The notes beneath the pieces were generated by a model that saw only the letters and a program-made list of their open reading frames with translations, ran no database searches and was not told the DNA's origin. A stretch of 37,056 nucleotides of DNA from IMG/VR virus record IMGVR_UViG_3300042731_004196, positions 1 through 37,056 of that record. One strand, given 5' to 3'. Positions 1,136 through 15,260 of this stretch are shown one piece after another (the first letter of the stretch is position 1; every line of letters starts with the position of its first letter). A program made the position numbers and the translations under genes. Source of the stretch: a virus.

Positions 1136-1804
1136 GTGAGCAAAGCGAATCCGCAAGAACGTGTTGTTAGGCCACGTTTGCTCGACCTGTACTGTTGTGC
1201 GGGAGGCGCTGCGATGGGCTACTACAATGCAGGATTTGATGTGGTTGGCGTTGATATTTGCCACCAGAAAAACTACCCGTTTGAGTTCCATCAGGCCGAT
1301 GCGCTGGAGTTCTTGCACCTGCGCGGCCACGAGTTTGACGCGATACACGCAAGCCCGCCGTGCCAAGCCTACAGCGAAACCAGAAAGATACAGCGCAACG
1401 AACACCCGGATCTGATACCGCCGACACGTACAGCACTGCAAAAGCTTGGCTTGCCGTGGGTAATCGAGAATGTGCCTGGGGCGCCGCTTATAAACCCGGT
1501 GATGCTGTGCGGGGCAATGTTTGGGCTACGCACATACCGGCATAGGCTGTTTGAAACGAGCTTACCGATAACTGTGCCGGCACACCCGGAGCACACCGCG
1601 CCACAAGCGAAGATGGGGCGACCGCCGAAAGCTGGCGAGTTTATCCACGTGGTTGGCAACTTTCCTGGTGTGGATTACGCACGAAAAGCGATGGAGATTG
1701 ACTGGGCGAATAGGAACGAAATGGCGCAGGCGATACCGCCAGCCTACACCGAATATTTAGGGCGGCAACTTCGAGCGGCGCTGATGCTGCGACAAGCGGC
1801 TTGA
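1136..1804 (+). CDS. DNA (cytosine-5) methyltransferase, compact 222-aa form
   Basis: Motif I DLYCCAGG, motif IV SPPCQAYS, motif VI VIENVPG, an RxR-like YRHRLFE and a motif X-like AQAIPPAY. GTG 1136 follows TAGGAG. Confidence 0.88.
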   Translation: MSKANPQERVVRPRLLDLYCCAGGAAMGYYNAGFDVVGVDICHQKNYPFEFHQADALEFLHLRGHEFDAIHASPPCQAYSETRKIQRNEHPDLIPPTRTALQKLGLPWVIENVPGAPLINPVMLCGAMFGLRTYRHRLFETSLPITVPAHPEHTAPQAKMGRPPKAGEFIHVVGNFPGVDYARKAMEIDWANRNEMAQAIPPAYTEYLGRQLRAALMLRQAA

Positions 1805-1965
1805 TTTGCCCGGTTAGATTGGGCTCTCCAGTTGGCGCACAGCGTCAGGAGTTCCGCGCGACGCTTTACGGGTATACGAACTTCGACGCGAACGATACCG
1901 GCTTTGCGGTCTCGTTCCCGGCTAGCGTTAACGTCTTTTCGGTTTTGGCCTTTGGTGCTTGGCAT
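1744..1965 (-). CDS. Small basic protein, probable RHH-type DNA-binding protein (73 aa)
   Basis: ATG 1965 has GGAG 8 nt upstream. RERDRKAGIVRVEVRIPVKRRAELLTL resembles small plasmid/phage RHH regulators. The 3' end overlaps the MTase 3' end by 61 nt. Confidence 0.5.
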   Translation of the reverse strand: MPSTKGQNRKDVNASRERDRKAGIVRVEVRIPVKRRAELLTLCANWRAQSNRANQAACRSISAARSCRPKYSV

Positions 1966-2011: not shown

Positions 2012-2233
2012 TTATGCGGCAAGTTGGGACTGGCGAATCCAGTAGAAGACCTCCCACGCTTCGACCCCTGCGGAAACGCCATTGTGGCGCATAACGCGGA
2101 TTCGGTTTTGAGCGATTCCGCTCACCCTGGAGAGCTTGCGAATCGTTACGCCAGTGCGGCGCATCATGCTGGAAATTTGCTTTCCTTCCAGTTCGCCGAA
2201 ACCACGATGAGACATGTTTTGGAATTGGTTCAT
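2012..2233 (-). CDS. Helix-turn-helix DNA-binding protein (Ner/Nlp-like), 73 aa
   Basis: ATG 2233 has GAGG 6 nt upstream. ISSMMRRTGVTIRKLSRVSGIAQNRIRVMRHNG is HTH-like. It is the first gene after the consensus leftward promoter. Confidence 0.6.
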   Translation of the reverse strand: MNQFQNMSHRGFGELEGKQISSMMRRTGVTIRKLSRVSGIAQNRIRVMRHNGVSAGVEAWEVFYWIRQSQLAA

Positions 2234-2331
2234 GATAACCTCTGGTCAGTTGTTTGGTTTCCGATTTGCTCCGGGACTCTATCCCGGTTTCGCCTCGGTC
2301 CCGACCTTTGAGCGGGCCGTTCGCTTAACTT

Positions 2332-2362
2332 GGTATCTATTATAGATACCTTACCGGTAAGG
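2332..2362. promoter_or_regulatory. Two abutting perfect palindromes (putative operators): GGTATCTATtATAGATACC and CCTTACCGGTAAGG
   Basis: The 19-bp palindrome at 2332-2350 covers the -10. The 14-bp palindrome at 2349-2362 fills the spacer of the leftward promoter. Confidence 0.6.
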
Positions 2363-2368
2363 TGTCAA
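2339..2368 (-). promoter_or_regulatory. Leftward promoter: TTGACA-18 nt-TATAAT (both hexamers consensus)
   Basis: On the minus strand, TTGACA is the reverse complement of 2363-2368 and TATAAT of 2339-2344. It drives the 2233-to-1744 operon. Confidence 0.6.
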
Positions 2369-2395
2369 GCACAAAGGTGGCGTTTCCGAAAGAAT

Positions 2396-2419
2396 CTAAC
2401 GACCGCCGTCAGCCGACGC
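2396..2419 (+). repeat. Conserved ~24-nt element CTAACGACCGCCGTCAGCCGACGC
   Basis: One of three full copies (also 2920-2941 and 5969-5994). This copy is not at the end of any ORF. Confidence 0.8.
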
Positions 2420-2472
2420 ACCAAAGGCGCGCGCGGCTTGATGAGCTTGTTAGATTTTCTTTCCCTCGGATG

Positions 2473-2501
2473 TTGACAGTACACCCGTTGGGTGTATTAT
2501 A
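2473..2501 (+). promoter_or_regulatory. Early promoter P2: TTGACA-16/17 nt-TATTAT/ATTATA, with the 17-bp palindrome TACACCCgttGGGTGTA (2480-2496) in the spacer
   Basis: -35 at 2473-2478. TTGTTAGATTTT lies at 2447-2458, the same upstream position as in P1. Confidence 0.6.
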
Positions 2502-2546
2502 TCACTCAGGGCGACGCACAACGCGAAGCCAAACCGGAGAAATAAG

Positions 2547-2723
2547 ATGCTGCTAACCAAAAGCGAAACCTACGACATTGACGCGCTGGAATTCTCGGGA
2601 TGGACTGAGGGCGACGGAAGCAGCACCGACGGGTATTCAGCATGGGCGTATTTCGACGCAGACAGGCGCTACCTCGGCCCTGATGAGTATGGTATCGAGC
2701 CAGAATTCGCGGATGCTGAATGA
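2547..2723 (+). CDS. Hypothetical small acidic protein (58 aa)
   Basis: ATG 2547 has GGAGA 7 nt upstream. 15 D/E versus 3 K/R. ATGA overlap with the following HTH gene. Confidence 0.55.
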   Translation: MLLTKSETYDIDALEFSGWTEGDGSSTDGYSAWAYFDADRRYLGPDEYGIEPEFADAE

Positions 2724-2923
2724 TCCCAGCAGAGGCCAGGCGAGCGCTGGGCCTCTCCCGCGGGGAGATGGCCCGAGCCATGGGGGTCCACCGCGAAACG
2801 TGGGCGAAGTGGGAGCGCGGAGAGCGACGACCAGATAACGCGGCCACACAACTGATGCGCCTGCTCTGCTGGCTGCGCGAGAAGCGAGGCCCGGCGCTGA
2901 CGCAGTGGCTGAGGGAAATCTAA
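2720..2923 (+). CDS. XRE-family helix-turn-helix regulator (67 aa)
   Basis: LGLSRGEMARAMGVHRETWAKWERGERRP is a typical XRE/MqsA-type HTH. It is translationally coupled to the upstream ORF. Confidence 0.75.
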   Translation: MIPAEARRALGLSRGEMARAMGVHRETWAKWERGERRPDNAATQLMRLLCWLREKRGPALTQWLREI

Positions 2924-2941
2924 CGACCAGCATCAGCCGCC
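2920..2941 (+). repeat. Conserved element CTAACGACCAGCATCAGCCGCC
   Basis: Its TAA is the stop of the HTH gene. Compare 2396-2419 and 5969-5994. Confidence 0.8.
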
Positions 2942-2957
2942 CTGCGAGGAATAAACG

Positions 2958-3179
2958 ATGACCGATGAACAGAACGCGAAACCTGAAGCAGACACCGACC
3001 CGCAGGGTCGGCTGGATGCGCTTGTTAGCTTGCTACTTCGCCGAGGCTACTACGAAGTAGACCCGCGAGTTGTAGGCGAAGGCGCTCAGCTTGTACATGG
3101 CAGGTGGTATATGCCAAGACTCGGCTGCGACACACTACAAATGGTGATAGATGAATTCGGCGACGAATTGGCAAGCTAA
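2958..3179 (+). CDS. Hypothetical protein (73 aa)
   Basis: ATG 2958 has GAGGA upstream. Coding-like composition; no motif recognised. Confidence 0.6.
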   Translation: MTDEQNAKPEADTDPQGRLDALVSLLLRRGYYEVDPRVVGEGAQLVHGRWYMPRLGCDTLQMVIDEFGDELAS

Positions 3180-3272
3180 CGGCGCTTTAACCAGCGCCAC
3201 GGCGGAGTAGAGATCGGACGCCGGAGTTTAACGCGTCTGCGTTCAAAGCATTGTTATGCGCGGGAGGTTCGC

Positions 3273-3470
3273 ATGAGGGTACAAGGCACGGCAGAAATGG
3301 GGCATGAAATCGCGCGTAGGAATGTAGACCAGGCAGTGATTCAACTTTGGCTGGCGTTGCGGGACTTGAGCGATTTCGATGACGAATACATGCGCGAAGA
3401 TGACCTGGATTTGTGGGGGAAGGTCACAGCCCACAGAGCAATACAGAATGCGTTTAATCGGAGCGCATAA
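3273..3470 (+). CDS. Hypothetical acidic protein (65 aa)
   Basis: ATG 3273 is preceded by GGGAGG. No motif recognised. Confidence 0.55.
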   Translation: MRVQGTAEMGHEIARRNVDQAVIQLWLALRDLSDFDDEYMREDDLDLWGKVTAHRAIQNAFNRSA

Positions 3471-3532
3471 CGAAAAAGCTCAGTTGTTGCGCAGGAGCGC
3501 AGCGACGGAGCAATCAACTGGAGCGACTGGTT

Positions 3533-3883
3533 ATGTGTGATTTTATTCTTAGCGTTGAAAAGGCCAATTTCCACCCGGGCGGGACAGCCCTCCGTGGCGA
3601 AGCCATGACGCCGAGTGACAGGTGCGCGCTCAAACCGAAGAAGGACAACTTCGGGCGCAAGCATGATCCAATTCGCTGGGTAATGAGTGGCGGCAGCCCT
3701 ATTACTGTGGCGCACCCGTGCAGCGCCGCCTGCCCTCTGAAAGTTCCCGCTGAAATCGGTGGGTACGGGAGCAGCTTCACTGGGCCATGCCCTGTGTGCC
3801 ACCGCATTGGCAAGCGTGCTGATGCAGGGTATGTGACGTGCCGTGAATGTGGTACTGGGTTTGAGCTAATTGATAACACATAA
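3533..3883 (+). CDS. Hypothetical protein with a C-terminal zinc ribbon (116 aa)
   Basis: CPVC...CREC pair near the C-terminus. ATG 3533 is preceded by GGAGCGACTGGTT. Confidence 0.6.
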   Translation: MCDFILSVEKANFHPGGTALRGEAMTPSDRCALKPKKDNFGRKHDPIRWVMSGGSPITVAHPCSAACPLKVPAEIGGYGSSFTGPCPVCHRIGKRADAGYVTCRECGTGFELIDNT

Positions 3884-3893
3884 CGTGAAGCCT

Positions 3894-3957
3894 AAGCCGA
3901 CCCGCGCGGCTACAGGGCTTGAAATTCCAGCCAAGAGTCGACGTGCGGGGTCGGCTT
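3894..3957 (+). other. Long imperfect hairpin (about 15-bp stem, 33-nt loop) followed by TTGTTAGCGATTTTTT
   Basis: AAGCCGACCC (3894-3903) pairs with GGGTCGGCTT (3948-3957), plus 5 more bp with one bulge. Possibly an atypical terminator or a structured RNA. Confidence 0.4.
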
Positions 3958-3991
3958 GGGGCACTTGTTAGCGATTTTTTGAGACTTAACG

Positions 3992-4627
3992 ATGAGCGAA
4001 TACCACAAGATACAAACCGTTTTTAAGCGTGACCCGGCCGCCAAGTACAGGACATTGCTGGAAGGTGACTACTCTTTGCCAGAGTTTGAATACCTCGCCA
4101 ATAACAAGTGGGTGTTCACCGAGAAGGTAAACGGGACCAACATTCGCGTTTACTGCCGCGGCGGAAAAGTGACTTTCGGCGGGAGGACTGACCGCGCGCA
4201 GATACCGGCAACACTGATTGAACGACTGAACGAGCGATTTTTGCCTCAGGTGGAACGGTTCTCCGAAGTGTGCAACGGAGCGGATGTGCGCCTGTACGGC
4301 GAAGGCCACGGCGCGAAGATTCAAAAAGATGGCGGCAATTACAGGCATGACCAGGACTTCGTTTTGTTCGATGTACTGGTTGGCGATGGGTGGTTACAAC
4401 GGCCTGACGTGGAAGACGTTGCAGGCAAGCTGGGGTTAGACGTTGTGCCGGTAGTGGGCGCAGGCACCTTGCTCGAAATGGTGGAGCAGGCAAAGGCGGG
4501 GGTTCAATCCACCTGGGGGGATTTCCAGGCCGAGGGGTATGTGGCGCGGCCTGCTATGGAACTGAGAGCGGGGGGCGGACACCGCCTGATTACTAAAATT
4601 AAATGCCGGGATTTCGTGTATCGCTAA
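3992..4627 (+). CDS. ATP-dependent RNA ligase (RNA_ligase/Rnl2-like nucleotidyltransferase fold), 211 aa
   Basis: Motif I EKVNGTN (KxNG), motif III FVLFDV, motif IV EGYVARP, motif V ITKIKCRDF. Confidence 0.8.
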   Translation: MSEYHKIQTVFKRDPAAKYRTLLEGDYSLPEFEYLANNKWVFTEKVNGTNIRVYCRGGKVTFGGRTDRAQIPATLIERLNERFLPQVERFSEVCNGADVRLYGEGHGAKIQKDGGNYRHDQDFVLFDVLVGDGWLQRPDVEDVAGKLGLDVVPVVGAGTLLEMVEQAKAGVQSTWGDFQAEGYVARPAMELRAGGGHRLITKIKCRDFVYR

Positions 4628-4667
4628 CAGTTATTTAAAAGCCGCAGGCGAGTAGATGACAACCATC

Positions 4668-4692
4668 GCCCCCGGCGGATAGAGTGATTTAT
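4668..4692 (+). repeat. 25-bp exact direct repeat GCCCCCGGCGGATAGAGTGATTTAT (copy 1), heading a ~120-nt duplicated intergenic module
   Basis: Identical to 5564-5588. The downstream ~100 nt of both copies align at roughly 75% identity by eye. Confidence 0.9.
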
Positions 4693-4790
4693 AACGCAAA
4701 TTTCAGCCGCGCCCCGCACGGTGGCCGGGGTGAGGCGCATAAGTTTCCGGCGTCGGCTGGAAATTTTGGTTAGCCACCAGTGCTCAATAG

Positions 4791-5078
4791 GTGACAAAAA
4801 TGACTGAGGCATTAACGAACTTCTCCTGGGCTTTGAACCAAATCAAAGCCGGAAAGAAGATGCAGCGGGCAGGCTGGAACGGCAAAGGCATGTTCGTGTT
4901 CCTCGTTCCAGGCTCGACTTTTCAGGTGAGCCGCGCACCGTTGCTCGGCATCTACCCGGAAGGCACCGAGATCAACTACCACGCCCACATCGACATGCGC
5001 ACCGCAGATGGCCAGGTCGTGCCCTGGCTTGCATCCCAAACGGACATCCTCGCCGATGACTGGCAGGAAGCGGCGTAA
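4791..5078 (+). CDS. DUF2829-family protein (Tad2-like candidate anti-Thoeris sponge), about 92-95 aa
   Basis: FSWALNQIKAGKKMQRAGWNGKGMFVFL ... WLASQTDILADDWQ matches the DUF2829 signature as I recall it. Start is GTG 4791 or ATG 4800. Confidence 0.78.
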   Translation: MTKMTEALTNFSWALNQIKAGKKMQRAGWNGKGMFVFLVPGSTFQVSRAPLLGIYPEGTEINYHAHIDMRTADGQVVPWLASQTDILADDWQEAA

Positions 5079-5115
5079 TGCACTGCTGCCAAGGATGGTG
5101 GCTAACGTTTCAAAT

Positions 5116-5154
5116 CAGCCGGCCCGCGTCGTTTGCGGGATCGGCTGTATTTGG
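5116..5154 (+). terminator. Putative intrinsic terminator after the DUF2829 gene
   Basis: CAGCCGgCCCGC / GCGGGatCGGCTG stem (11 bp, two bulges), followed by TATTTGG. Confidence 0.45.
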
Positions 5155-5184
5155 TGGTTATAAATAACATTGCTGAGGACTCTA

Positions 5185-5583
5185 ATGAAAACGGGAACAT
5201 GTAAACACTTCAACGGCACACAGCATGATGCTTGCGTGGCAGGCATCAATATCCGAGAAATGGCCGGCGGGGAAAATCGCGGGTGGGCACGTCGAATGCC
5301 TTGCATGAAAAGCAACGGTTCTACCGTTACCTGCAACCAGTACAGCGAGCCGACAGCGGAAGAGTTGGCAGCAGAGGAAGCAAAATGGGCCGAGATCTTT
5401 AAAAACGTGGCGCTGGTGCAACCGATAATGAGGGAGCTTAAAACCGAATATAAAGGCCAAAACCGGGATGGGGTCAGAGAGTGCCCGGTATGCGGAAACA
5501 AGCTGCATTTGGCGATATTCGCAGAGAACGGCCATGTTCACGGGATGTGCGAAACGGACGCCTGCCCCCGGCGGATAGAGTGA
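5185..5583 (+). CDS. Cysteine-rich (multi zinc-finger-like) hypothetical protein, 132 aa
   Basis: ATG 5185 has GAGGA 5 nt upstream. Motifs CKHF..C, CPVCGNKLH...NGHVHGMCETDAC. The 3' end lies inside repeat copy 2. Confidence 0.7.
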   Translation: MKTGTCKHFNGTQHDACVAGINIREMAGGENRGWARRMPCMKSNGSTVTCNQYSEPTAEELAAEEAKWAEIFKNVALVQPIMRELKTEYKGQNRDGVRECPVCGNKLHLAIFAENGHVHGMCETDACPRRIE

Positions 5584-12230: not shown

Positions 12231-12481
12231 AAAGCAAAATCCCGCCCATCGTGTCAGTGCTGCTCGGGCTGACGGAGGGCTCGTATGCACTGGCAGAGAT
12301 CATGTCTGACAAGGGGGTCAAGCCCTCCCGCGAGCAGATGTCCGAGGTGTTCGCGAAGCAGGCGGCGGTCCTGGAACACCTCACGGTCGTGTTGGCGCGG
12401 CACTTCGGGGTCTCCCAGACAGACCTGCTGAGGATGGCAGAGGGCGAGCCCGATCCTGAGACACAGGAGACCAAGCATTGA
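12221..12481 (+). CDS. Hypothetical protein (86 aa)
   Basis: ATG 12221 overlaps the SSB gene end. Its stop overlaps the polymerase start. Confidence 0.55.
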   Translation: MAVESKIPPIVSVLLGLTEGSYALAEIMSDKGVKPSREQMSEVFAKQAAVLEHLTVVLARHFGVSQTDLLRMAEGEPDPETQETKH

Positions 12482-13269
12482 CTCGCGTGCATTTCGATCT
12501 CGAAACCGCGTGCGACCTCGACCTCAAGCAGGTCGGGCTGACCAACTACGTCAACCACGAGTCGTTCCGCGTCCTGATGACCGCGTGGGCCTTCGACGAT
12601 GAACCCGTGCAGTGGGGCGAGGGGCTGGTGCGGTTCTGGGGCAAGCGCTGGCCCTCGACCTGGCACGCCTTCAACGTGCCGTTCGAGGCAGCTTGTCTAC
12701 GCCGCTACGGCGTGGGGGTCGCACTCCAGCTATGGCGCTGCACCCTGGCCCATTCCTACGCCCGCGGCTTCTCCGGCGGGCTGGACAAGGTCGGGGAGCA
12801 GGTCGGCATCGCGCAGGATGCGCAAAAGCTCAAGGAAGGAGGCCGGCTAATCAACAAGTTCTGCAAGCCCCGCCGGCCCAGCAAGTCCAATCCCGACCCG
12901 TATTGGACTGAGAAGACCGCCCCCCTGGACTGGGCGCGGTTCTGTGAGTACAACCGGCAAGACGTAGTGGCCGAGCGAGCCATCTGGTACGAGCTTAACA
13001 GGTGGCCCTGGACCCCTGAGGAGCAGCGCCTGTGGCAGCTTGACAGGGGTATCAATACTGAGGGGGTGCCCGTGGACCTTCCCATGGTGCGGAACGCCCT
13101 GAGCGTCGCTGAAAGGCTGTCAGCGGGCCTCGCGCAGGACTGCCTGCGGGTCACCGGCGGCATTGGTCCTGGACAGGTCCAGGCCCTGCTGGCGTGGTGC
13201 CGGGAGCGAGGTTACGAGGGGGAAGACCTGCGGGCTGGAACAATAGAGGAGGCGTTGAAAGGAGGTTGA
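12478..13269 (+). CDS. Family-A DNA polymerase, N-terminal 3'-5' exonuclease part (split gene, part 1)
   Basis: ExoI-like HFDLETA, plus YNRQDVVAERAIW (ExoIII-like). It ends at a TGA that overlaps the TTGACA of the insert promoter. Confidence 0.85.
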   Translation: MTRVHFDLETACDLDLKQVGLTNYVNHESFRVLMTAWAFDDEPVQWGEGLVRFWGKRWPSTWHAFNVPFEAACLRRYGVGVALQLWRCTLAHSYARGFSGGLDKVGEQVGIAQDAQKLKEGGRLINKFCKPRRPSKSNPDPYWTEKTAPLDWARFCEYNRQDVVAERAIWYELNRWPWTPEEQRLWQLDRGINTEGVPVDLPMVRNALSVAERLSAGLAQDCLRVTGGIGPGQVQALLAWCRERGYEGEDLRAGTIEEALKGG

Positions 13270-14069: not shown

Positions 14070-14145
14070 AGCCAATATCGCGCTCAGTGGGCTGCGCAAG
14101 CGGCGAAAGGCTCAGTGTCATGACGGTTGCTGGATCCTGCGGTGA
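13933..14145 (+). CDS. Hypothetical protein (70 aa), winged-helix-like C-terminal half
   Basis: REQVLRAIACG...GWPTRKANIALSGLRKR...GCWIL resembles a wHTH. Its TGA (14143-14145) overlaps an in-frame GTG 14142 of the polymerase part (GTGA). Confidence 0.35.
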   Translation: MSMPTPENLSGQKGSLSSREQVLRAIACGWNTRQRPEGRLGWPTRKANIALSGLRKRRKAQCHDGCWILR

Positions 14146-15260
14146 CCCCCGAGTGCCGGAAAGCCCTGCAGCTGCGCCTCGCCTATGCGCAATCTGCCAC
14201 CAAGAAGTTCCACGCCATCGACCGTCTGCAGCACAACGGGCGGGTCTACGAGACCCTGCAAGCCTGGGGCGCGAGCCGCACGGGCCGATGGGGCGGACGG
14301 GGGCTCCAGGTCCAGAACCTCAAGCGGCCCACCCGCGGGGTCGGGGACCCCGATCGTGCCGCCCAGACGCTCGCAGAAGACCCTGACCTGTTCGCCCGCC
14401 TCTACACACTGGAAGACCTCGGGAGCCTCGTCAGGAGTGCCATACGGGCTCCGGACGACTATAGCCTCGTGGTCTCCGACCTGTCCTCGATCGAGCCCCG
14501 CGTGCTGGGGTGGCTGACCGGCTGCGTCTGGATCAACGAGGTATTCGCCCGCGGCAAGGACACCTACAAGGCCTTCGCGGAAATGTGGCTGCGGGCGCCT
14601 TACGACGACGTGGACAAGCCAACCCGCGACCTGTGCAAGGGCCCATTCCTCGGGTTTGGCTACGGCATTGGGGCTGGCGGGCTGAAGACCTATGCGGAAG
14701 GCATGGGCGTGGAGATGTCCGAGGACCAGTGCGAGAGTGCCATCAAAACCGTGCGCAAGGTCTGCTACGAAGTGCCCCGGTTTTGGATGCAGATCGAAGG
14801 CTGCTTCCGCCTGACCGCACAGACGGGGGTGCCCACAGGCGACGGGCTAGGACTCCCTATACAGATGGAAGGGCGGTTCCTGACCATCCGCCTGCCGAGC
14901 GGACGCAAGCTGTACTACGACGCCCCGGAGGATGACCCCGAGGAAGGGCTGTCCTACATGGGGCAGAACCAGTACACCAACAAGTGGGAGCGGATTCGGA
15001 CGTATGGCGCGCGGTTGACGGAAAACCTCTGCCAGGCAATCGCTCGGGACGTCCTGGTCGAGGGGTTGTATCGCTATGCGGGCATCGGGGGCACTCTTAT
15101 CACGCATATCCACGATGAGGCGGTTGCGGTGGAAATCGAATGGGCTGCAGAAGACCGGCTCGCAGAGATGAACAGGTGCCTGTCGGAGCCCGTCCCCTGG
15201 GCTCCCGGCCTCCTGCTCGGAAGCTCGGGATACATCTCCAAGCGGTATCGGAAAGACTAG
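14127..15260 (+). CDS. Family-A DNA polymerase, polymerase domain (split gene, part 2)
   Basis: RTGRWGGRGLQVQNLKRP, motif A VVSDLSSIEPRVLGW, motif B KGPFLGFGYGIG, motif C HIHDEAVAV. Start is TTG 14127 or GTG 14142. Confidence 0.88.
   Translation: MLDPAVTPECRKALQLRLAYAQSATKKFHAIDRLQHNGRVYETLQAWGASRTGRWGGRGLQVQNLKRPTRGVGDPDRAAQTLAEDPDLFARLYTLEDLGSLVRSAIRAPDDYSLVVSDLSSIEPRVLGWLTGCVWINEVFARGKDTYKAFAEMWLRAPYDDVDKPTRDLCKGPFLGFGYGIGAGGLKTYAEGMGVEMSEDQCESAIKTVRKVCYEVPRFWMQIEGCFRLTAQTGVPTGDGLGLPIQMEGRFLTIRLPSGRKLYYDAPEDDPEEGLSYMGQNQYTNKWERIRTYGARLTENLCQAIARDVLVEGLYRYAGIGGTLITHIHDEAVAVEIEWAAEDRLAEMNRCLSEPVPWAPGLLLGSSGYISKRYRKD

Follow-up and report, generated by a model that had tools for sequence, protein, structure and literature searches.

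The window analysed here is the whole of a 37,056-nucleotide (nt) stretch of viral DNA (positions 1 to 37,056 of IMG/VR record IMGVR_UViG_3300042731_004196), and positions 2473-2923 of it hold a compact cassette composed of a strong promoter (P2), a palindrome within that promoter, an acidic open reading frame (ORF) of 58 amino acids (aa; ORF58) and a 67-aa helix-turn-helix (HTH) gene (HTH67). The initial annotation recognised in this arrangement the architecture of anti-CRISPR (acr) and anti-CRISPR-associated (aca) loci, and the comparative evidence bears this out: the HTH is assignable to the Aca9 family, the operator and its register match those of the founding aca9 locus, and the slot upstream of the HTH varies from locus to locus. 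On balance, the locus is probably an Aca9-type acr-aca-like early operon, with ORF58 most likely acting as a small acidic inhibitor of a host immune protein or other host protein.

HTH67 (2720..2923, + strand) is coupled to ORF58 through a shared ATGA (2720-2723) and carries the XRE-type HTH that had been read from the letters alone (HTH_31, E 9e-8; HTH_3, E 2e-7). Generic libraries describe it as XRE/MqsA-like, with TIGR03830 scoring 35 bits (under its cut-off) and PF15731 matching weakly. A comparison with the known Aca families, as proposed by the initial annotation, was made with one hidden Markov model (HMM) per family, using the Aca1-10 reference sequences from Supplement S1 of Shehreen et al. 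2022 (PMC9410906). This comparison points to Aca9: the model of its 10 published sequences scored 62.4 bits (E 1.4e-20), and those of Aca1-8 and Aca10 all gave about 20 bits or less (e.g., Aca6 20.2, Aca10 18.6, Aca2 18.0). Pairwise BLASTP against the Aca9 references agrees, with 40-54% identity over residues 2-64 and a best E of 2e-17. The Aca9 HMM is the top-scoring one for each of the 27 members of the HTH67 family (45-102 bits), with the bridging homologues P0026-P0028 at 92-102 bits. A search of IMG/VR with the HTH67 profile also retrieved a locus (L037) whose HTH is 100% identical to the reference Aca9 WP_099843333.1 and whose upstream ORF is 96.7% identical to the gene beside Aca9 WP_131138857 on the Klebsiella pneumoniae plasmid NZ_CP036439.1, where aca9 was defined beside an AcrIF22* homologue (PMC7648647). 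The AlphaFold2 (AF2) model of HTH67 has four helices (predicted local distance difference test score (pLDDT) of 95.7), and its top Foldseek match is the C-terminal domain of HigA2 (5J9I/5JAA, template-modelling (TM) score 0.69-0.70), followed by Aca2 and Aca10; HigA2 is likewise the nearest structure reported for Aca9 (PMC9410906). HTH67 has the form of an Aca9 protein, namely that of a small single-domain HTH_3-type protein (about 65-75 aa) with the HigA2 C-terminal domain as its nearest fold. Aca10, which provided the best PDB hit of the HTH67 family profile (7XI5, E 5.5e-4), was considered as the closest family and was displaced by the Aca9 HMM scores. A tblastn search of INPHARED with HTH67 returned weak matches only, in Aeromonas phages, and its closest relatives (70-88% identity) are all metagenomic. 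By profile and pairwise comparison, HTH67 is placed as a divergent member of the published Aca9 family.

The promoter and its palindrome conform to this assignment. P2 (2473-2500) is a near-consensus sigma-70 promoter on the + strand that matches 11/12 consensus positions, with a -35 of TTGACA (2473-2478) and a -10 of TATTAT (2495-2500) separated by a 16-nt spacer; TTGAC is invariant in the aligned related cassettes. The palindrome, TACACCC-gtt-GGGTGTA (TACACCCgttGGGTGTA, 2480..2496), is a perfect 7+3+7 dyad of the Aca9 inverted-repeat type. It had been placed exactly between the -35 and the -10; it does fill the spacer, but it also overlaps the first two bases of the -10. The sole perfect copy of TACACCCgttGGGTGTA in the window is this one, and further matches to the operator are chance-level, with three mismatches. 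Taken singly, neither a P2-like promoter nor a 7-3-7 palindrome is remarkable by chance: promoter-like sites number 5 in 8 kb (3.0 +/- 1.8 in shuffles), and perfect 7-3-7 palindromes number 6 in the window (about 3 in shuffles). Since each is near chance expectation, the case rests on comparative conservation.

This conservation is extensive. At least 18 independent loci have the same layout of -35, palindrome and -10 ahead of an HTH homologue. An inspection of 17 operator sites across related loci shows that the two arms are complementary at their three innermost positions in 17/17, with the innermost pair being C:G in 11 sites and T:A in 6, and operator position 5 is occupied by three different complementary pairs. 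Such symmetric changes in the two arms are the mark of a dyad-symmetric site that a dimer recognises. The operators of more distant homologues are variants (ACCT-N3-AGGT or GCCT-N3-AGGC) that invariably lie in the spacer, and one locus (L046) has two operator sites. The inverted-repeat consensus reported for Aca9 is TAACACCTGTCAGGTGAT, the CACC core of which matters for repression (PMC9410906), and the inverted repeat of the window, which likewise has a CACC core, lies within the core promoter of its operon. Compared with the published ACACCT-N3-AGGTGT, the ACACCC-N3-GGGTGT of the window differs by one symmetric change (T to C, with A to G in the other arm). The promoters of the founding plasmid (TTGTGA-AACACACCTGTCAGGTG-TACACT) and the window (TTGACA-GTACACCCGTTGGGTG-TATTAT) can be laid side by side, and the register of the repeat is the same in both: it ends on the first T of the -10 and starts 65 nt (plasmid) or 66 nt (window) before the start codon of the cargo gene. 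The palindrome is therefore predicted to be an Aca9-type operator with divergent specificity. Given the homology and the conservation of the operator, and given that the Klebsiella Aca9 repressed its own promoter in reporter assays (PMC9410906), HTH67 very probably binds this site and represses P2 in the source phage.

When IMG/VR was searched in the reverse direction, from the pattern of promoter and operator (TTGACA-N1-3-AYACCCnnTGGGTRT), nine loci were found, and a -10, which the pattern leaves unspecified, follows the palindrome in eight of them. A clear Aca9 homologue is present in 1/9 and other short XRE HTHs in 3/9; another 3/9 are stretches that end within about 700 nt downstream of the site, and the reverse search is informative only in part. 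Three AT-rich viral contigs (L114, L118 and L121) combine the same pattern of promoter and palindrome, followed by a -10, with a downstream regulator of another kind, a short XRE HTH bearing the motif IPYRxxQNWExGxRE; in L114 an additional, imperfect site is present at about +25, and the cargo of L121 has a ParB/Srx-like look. Upstream of P2, 14 nt 5' of the -35, lies a T-rich element (TTGTTAGATTTT, 2447..2458, + strand) with a putative UP-element-like function; GTTAGATTT/GTTAAATTT are kept at the equivalent place in related cassettes.

The gene that occupies the position between this control region and the HTH changes from one locus to the next. In a comparison of 28 non-redundant loci with an HTH67/Aca9 homologue, the upstream ORFs are mutually unrelated, no pair giving a BLASTP match below E 0.007. 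They range in size from 53 to 221 aa, often overlap the start of the HTH gene by 4 nt, and have a net charge of -5 or lower in 17/28 cases. Within the closest group, whose HTHs are 70-88% identical, the T-rich element, the -35, the operator with its -10, and a leader of about 50 nt are all kept around a changing cargo. Acr-aca loci are defined by a small, replaceable gene set between a control region and a regulator that are both conserved (PMC9410906, PMC13551039), and, as in known Aca9 operons, the HTH gene of the window lies directly 3' of a small variable gene, here with an ATGA overlap. Judged from these 28 loci with their 28 unrelated ORFs, the slot upstream of the HTH67 family is hypervariable. 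The one cargo of known function among them is the AcrIF22* homologue of L037; 10 other cargo proteins were compared with Pfam and PHROG, and none obtained a function except one Myb-like protein. Two further observations concern the surroundings of such cassettes. One locus (L007) holds two pairs of a small ORF and an HTH gene (2-426 and 1338-1744) about 900 nt apart, the first with an unrelated XRE HTH. At three others (L105-L107), a PAPS-reductase-like gene, of a type recently noted in Aca-regulated operons (PMC13551039), lies 0.4-0.5 kb downstream of the Aca9-like gene.

The cargo of the window, ORF58 (2547..2723, + strand), is preceded by a Shine-Dalgarno sequence (GGAG, 2536-2539, + strand) 7 nt upstream, and its description as a very acidic 58-aa protein is accurate (15 D/E and 3 K/R were counted, for a net charge of -12). 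A word-indexed protein search recovered only ORF58 itself and suggested an orphan, a notion overturned by an exhaustive HMMER search of 1.84 billion representatives, in which the family comprises at least 269 clusters at E<=1e-3, of which 19 reach E<=1e-10. The shared domain of about 55 residues follows the pattern L..G..YD...L.F.GWT.GDG....GY...DYFD.DG.YLGPD.HGIEP.F., in which W19, F36, G44, D46 and P52 are invariant, and it occurs either alone (55-80 aa) or within larger proteins of up to 679 aa. All family members that were looked up are metagenomic 'hypothetical proteins', 10 proteins in which the domain is fused to other sequence had no match in Pfam, and a tblastn search of INPHARED with ORF58 found no match. 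The AF2 model of ORF58 is confident (pLDDT 92.7). ORF58 is thus a real, folded and widespread phage protein family. One of the fusions, P0047, carries an ORF58-family domain in its N-terminal half and a homologue of the 56-aa ORF at 771-941 of the window in its C-terminal half (52% identity, E 2e-16), so that two separate small early proteins of the source phage are fused in another phage. At another locus (L012, IMG/VR 3300049489_000424, 2977-3401), an ORF58-family member overlaps a downstream ORF of 73-79 aa with a ribbon-helix-helix (RHH)-like signature (SEYIRRLIAEDL); this downstream ORF has a weak NikA-like match (E 0.02) and is reminiscent of the RHH-type Aca14 described in 2026. By virtue of the HTH67 family, the operator and the variable slot, ORF58 is a candidate anti-defence protein by association: it is a small protein whose gene directly precedes an aca gene and is served by a strong promoter that is predicted to be Aca-controlled. 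From position and context, the proposal that it specifically inhibits a host defence is a tentative one, which falls a little short of an even chance.

Between the promoter and ORF58, the leader of the transcript can form a hairpin, GGC-GA-CGC-ACAAC-GCG-AA-GCC (2510..2530, + strand), which begins 2-3 nt after the predicted transcription start (about 2507) and is present in the minimum-free-energy fold. Leaders of the cassettes folded singly give the same two-tier shape, (((..(((......)))..))). In a hand-anchored alignment of 10 leaders, 88% of cells are paired and compensatory changes are found in 5/6 pairs; none of 500 shuffles reached the observed values, and slid controls collapsed. A covariance model recovered the 10 training leaders plus L109 (E 0.003), L112 (E 0.015) and L105 (E 0.12), and nothing beyond cassette leaders in 244 kb searched on both strands. 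With these 13 leaders aligned by the model, 90% of cells are paired, with 12 compensatory cells and compensatory changes again in 5/6 pairs; 0/500 shuffles reached the covariation score or the paired fraction and 5/500 reached the compensatory-pair count, figures to be read with the caveats that the sequences are few, that most of the covariation comes from two or three of them, that the structure was derived from the same sequences, and that the second alignment was fitted to the model. RNAalifold applied to a plain MAFFT alignment gave a 3-bp stem only, the fold of the single leader was not significant (z = -0.9), and no Rfam family matched in 2200-3000. In the founding Klebsiella locus this place is taken by another hairpin, of 7 bp. 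The leader hairpin covaries within the cassette set and is a candidate 5'-untranslated-region (5'-UTR) motif for this Aca9 subfamily; any role it may have is putative.

These elements suggest a simple circuit. Upon entry of the phage DNA, the host sigma-70 RNA polymerase would fire the strong promoter P2 and produce a transcript with a short structured leader followed by ORF58, with HTH67 made by translational coupling. As HTH67 accumulates, its dimer would bind the 17-bp dyad, which spans the spacer and reaches into the -10, exclude RNA polymerase and turn P2 off, in a negative autoregulation. ORF58 would be the exchangeable cargo, and most likely a small acidic inhibitor of a host immune protein or other host protein during early infection. 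The transcript probably extends into downstream early genes on the + strand (2958..5583), i.e., three small ORFs, an RNA ligase (3992-4627; Pfam RNA_ligase, E 8e-20), a Tad2-like (anti-Thoeris) gene (4791-5078; PF11195, E 2.5e-26), and an ORF at 5170-5583. No terminator-like site was found on the + strand from 2923 to about 6018, and in the absence of a terminator 3' of HTH67, P2 probably drives these genes, including the RNA ligase and the Tad2-like gene, as well.

The cassette lies in a small-gene cluster at the early end of the genome, and within 3 kb of it there is, besides the RNA ligase and the Tad2-like gene, an orphan C5 cytosine methylase (1136-1804) that lies 650 nt upstream, in the operon of another promoter (P1). 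No restriction endonuclease was detected in the neighbourhood by scans against Pfam, PHROGs and PADLOC. Orphan methylases and Tad2 are recognised counter-defence functions (Tad2 also by the name of its Pfam family), and phage RNA ligases can mend tRNAs cut by anticodon nucleases. The methylase, the RNA ligase and the Tad2-like gene form a cluster of likely counter-defence genes around the cassette. It is documented that acr loci tend to cluster with further anti-defence genes (PMC7648647).

Several findings weigh against the reading of the locus as an Aca9-type operon with an anti-defence cargo. In Pfam, PHROG, NCBIfam and PADLOC it has no match; its family profile matched none of the PDB sequences (best E 0.2) and its model none of the structures in PDB and BFVD by Foldseek (best E above 5), so that, in these collections, homology to a characterised anti-defence protein was found in neither sequence nor fold. 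The near-full-length identity of HTH67 to canonical Aca9 is only 40-44%, the 54% being reached over 50 residues of one reference. Apart from the AcrIF22* homologue, the cargo proteins of the 28 loci are without known function. Among 16 IMG/VR loci, the ORF58-family member mostly stands without an adjacent regulator, an XRE HTH following it in one and a possible RHH protein in another; together with the fusions, this scarcity may indicate a general early or host-takeover role. The aca gene is usually the last of its operon, while no terminator follows HTH67, which may instead be a general shut-off repressor of the early operon. 

The alternative that survives best draws these points together and is, on the whole, somewhat unlikely: HTH67 would provide the temporal shut-off of the rightward early operon, and ORF58 would be a general host-takeover or accessory protein (e.g., one that binds a conserved housekeeping protein of the host) rather than an inhibitor of immunity. 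The strong conservation of the ORF58 domain across at least 269 clusters, its frequent lack of an adjacent regulator and occasional fusion, the joining in P0047 to the domain of another small early ORF, and the probable control of the whole early cluster by P2 all speak for this view, and surveys assign functions to under half of Aca-regulated genes (PMC13551039). However, a cargo slot that is hypervariable and biased towards small acidic proteins presents the pattern of an arms race and not that of core early functions, the sole cargo of known function in the set is an anti-CRISPR homologue, and a Tad2-like gene and an orphan methylase adjoin the cassette.

A very improbable alternative is a type II toxin-antitoxin module in the HigBA/MqsRA order, with the upstream ORF as toxin and the HTH as antitoxin and autorepressor. 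Such modules likewise have a small ORF followed by an HTH gene, an overlap of 4 nt and a promoter with a palindromic operator, and HTH67 resembles the DNA-binding domains of MqsA and HigA2 in the library and Foldseek matches given above. Yet all 67 aa of HTH67 align with only the DNA-binding and dimerisation domain of HigA2/MqsA, which leaves no extra segment for neutralisation; in HigA2 the neutralising part is N-terminal. Nor is the upstream partner of the kind required, as ORF58 is very acidic and matches no toxin or PADLOC model, no toxin homologue stands upstream, and the combination of 28 unrelated partners with HTHs that are 60-88% identical in the closest group, in place of a toxin-binding region and a conserved partner family, is incompatible with specific toxin-antitoxin pairing. 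Scarcely credible is a restriction-modification controller (C) protein circuit or a Cro/CI-like lysis-lysogeny switch with the palindrome as C-box or operator, for although C.BclI, C.Kpn2I and C.Esp1396I are among the sequence and fold matches, a C5 methylase lies 650 nt upstream, and another small HTH-like gene is driven by a divergent promoter that has palindromes of its own, the C-protein matches are weaker than those to Aca9, the methylase belongs to the operon of P1, no endonuclease is nearby for the HTH gene to precede and control (small ORFs, the RNA ligase and the Tad2-like gene are downstream), C genes precede their target gene rather than follow a variable ORF, no integrase is seen among the annotated ORFs (part of the ORFs being annotated), and in related loci the cassette is embedded in an early cluster that runs in one direction and has no divergent repressor.

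The closest characterised system to this Aca9-type operon is acrIF22*-aca9 of K. pneumoniae NZ_CP036439.1 (PMC7648647, PMC9410906). The two share a homologous HTH (67 versus 69 aa, 41% identity, E 1e-15) with the same nearest fold, encoded directly 3' of a small variable gene, and an operator of the form ACACC[T/C]-N3-[A/G]GGTGT in the promoter spacer in the same register. The window differs in representing a divergent subfamily from uncultured environmental phages; its half-site has C for T (and, symmetrically, G for A), it has one operator whereas the founding locus has two, its genes overlap by ATGA whereas those of the founding locus are separated by a 9-nt gap, its leader hairpin is of another kind, it carries ORF58 as cargo in place of AcrIF22*, AcrIF15 or AcrIF17, and the operon seems to run past the aca gene. 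Aca10 of Pseudomonas citronellolis (PDB 7XI5; Lee et al. 2022, PMC9410881) is also a small four-helix HTH dimer that reads a 19-21-bp palindrome overlapping the acr promoter, and it has the motif TWxxWExGxRR in common with HTH67; however, the similarity is at the generic HTH level (18.6 bits, versus 62.4 on the Aca9 HMM), and the Aca10 operator is different (ATACGCTCAtTGAGCGTAT). HigA2/MqsA share with HTH67 the fold (TM 0.70 to 5J9I), the upstream position of the partner gene and autoregulation through a palindrome, but HTH67 lacks a toxin-neutralising extension, there is no toxin homologue, and the partner is hypervariable between loci. In Aca2 and Aca1 operons, which are under dual DNA/RNA control, a DNA motif in the promoter is followed by a transcription start just downstream, a structured RNA motif directly behind it, and a conserved spacing to the start codon of the acr gene (Feussner et al. 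2026, PMC13551039). This layout has been described for Aca1, Aca2, Aca10 and Aca12 operons, and Aca2 and Aca1 bind the leader RNA; no RNA motif was reported for Aca9 (PMC13551039). The covarying hairpin at 2510-2530 stands in a matching layout, but it shows no obvious mimicry of an operator half-site, and binding of HTH67 to the hairpin is hypothetical.

Other promoters near the cassette share features with P2. Copies of TTGTTAGATTTT with two mismatches or fewer number 5 in the window (0.8 expected), at 670-681 and 2447-2458 on the + strand and at 1106-1117, 2391-2402 and 2915-2926 on the - strand. The two perfect copies lie upstream of P1 (670-681) and P2, one minus-strand copy lies upstream of a divergent promoter, and the remaining two, both on the minus strand, fall on the '...I-stop' ends of ORF 902-1114 and the HTH gene. 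P1 (669-723) reads TTGACT-N17-TATACT, with a 14-bp AT-rich palindrome in its spacer (ATATGTATACATAT), and is followed by ORF 771-941, ORF 902/938-1114 and the C5 methylase. The block TTGTTAGATTTTyCyTTCyCTCGG, which extends up to the -35, is common to P1 and P2, and the two promoters look like paralogues with different operators. The divergent minus-strand promoter (2332-2368, TTGACA-N18-TATAAT, 12/12 consensus positions) is 105 nt from P2 and holds two perfect, overlapping palindromes, one covering the -10 (GGTATCTAttaTAGATACC, 2332-2350) and one within the spacer (ACCTTACCGGTAAGGT, 2348-2363). The outer bases, ATACCT...AGGTGT, resemble Aca9-type half-sites with a spacing of 8 nt, not 3. The promoter drives a 73-aa, weakly HTH_26-like gene (2233..2012), with a strong terminator at 2007-1988, after which comes a second 73-aa ORF, a basic one (1965..1744).

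The window makes up nearly the whole of a 37.5-kb metagenomic contig (JGI 3300035150, Ga0373606_0000022). The genome encodes a Prim-Pol/DUF5906 primase, an exonuclease, a split DNA polymerase, a helicase, a single-stranded-DNA-binding protein, a tail fibre, a portal and a large terminase. The source phage is a lytic-looking, podovirus-like, uncultured virus, with no DNA-level relative among 50,697 deposited phage genomes (blastn, distant mode). The DNA polymerase is encoded in two ORFs (12478-13269 and 14127-15260) that match consecutive parts of one PHROG profile and are separated by a gap of about 860 nt containing ORFs without a clear family, which could reflect either an intervening element or a natural split. 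The very start of the window, near the contig end, holds a tandem array (1-91) of 6.1 copies of a 15-nt unit, GGGATGCGGACCAGA.

The aca genes are the most productive markers for the discovery of anti-CRISPR and anti-defence proteins, and many partners of aca9 are still to be found (PMC7648647). The locus described here widens Aca9 by a divergent subfamily from uncultured environmental phages, and provides two modestly new details for this subfamily: a precise operator whose specificity is changed symmetrically at one base, and a candidate RNA motif in the 5'-UTR. The comparison of loci furthermore gives about 28 small cargo proteins, mutually unrelated and for the most part acidic, that are worth testing, amongst which ORF58 is the most attractive because it belongs to a conserved family with a confidently predicted fold that lacks a structural match. 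The most far-reaching version of these proposals, in which ORF58 founds a family of immune inhibitors with an unseen fold, the Aca9 subfamily exerts dual control through the operator and the hairpin RNA, and the 28 cargo proteins amount to a catalogue of anti-defence proteins, is unlikely to hold in full. Dual control at the promoter and the RNA, if true for this subfamily, would add to a mode of regulation so far shown only for Aca2 and Aca1, and if even a few of the cargo proteins inhibit defence, they would constitute a ready source of new inhibitors and tools.

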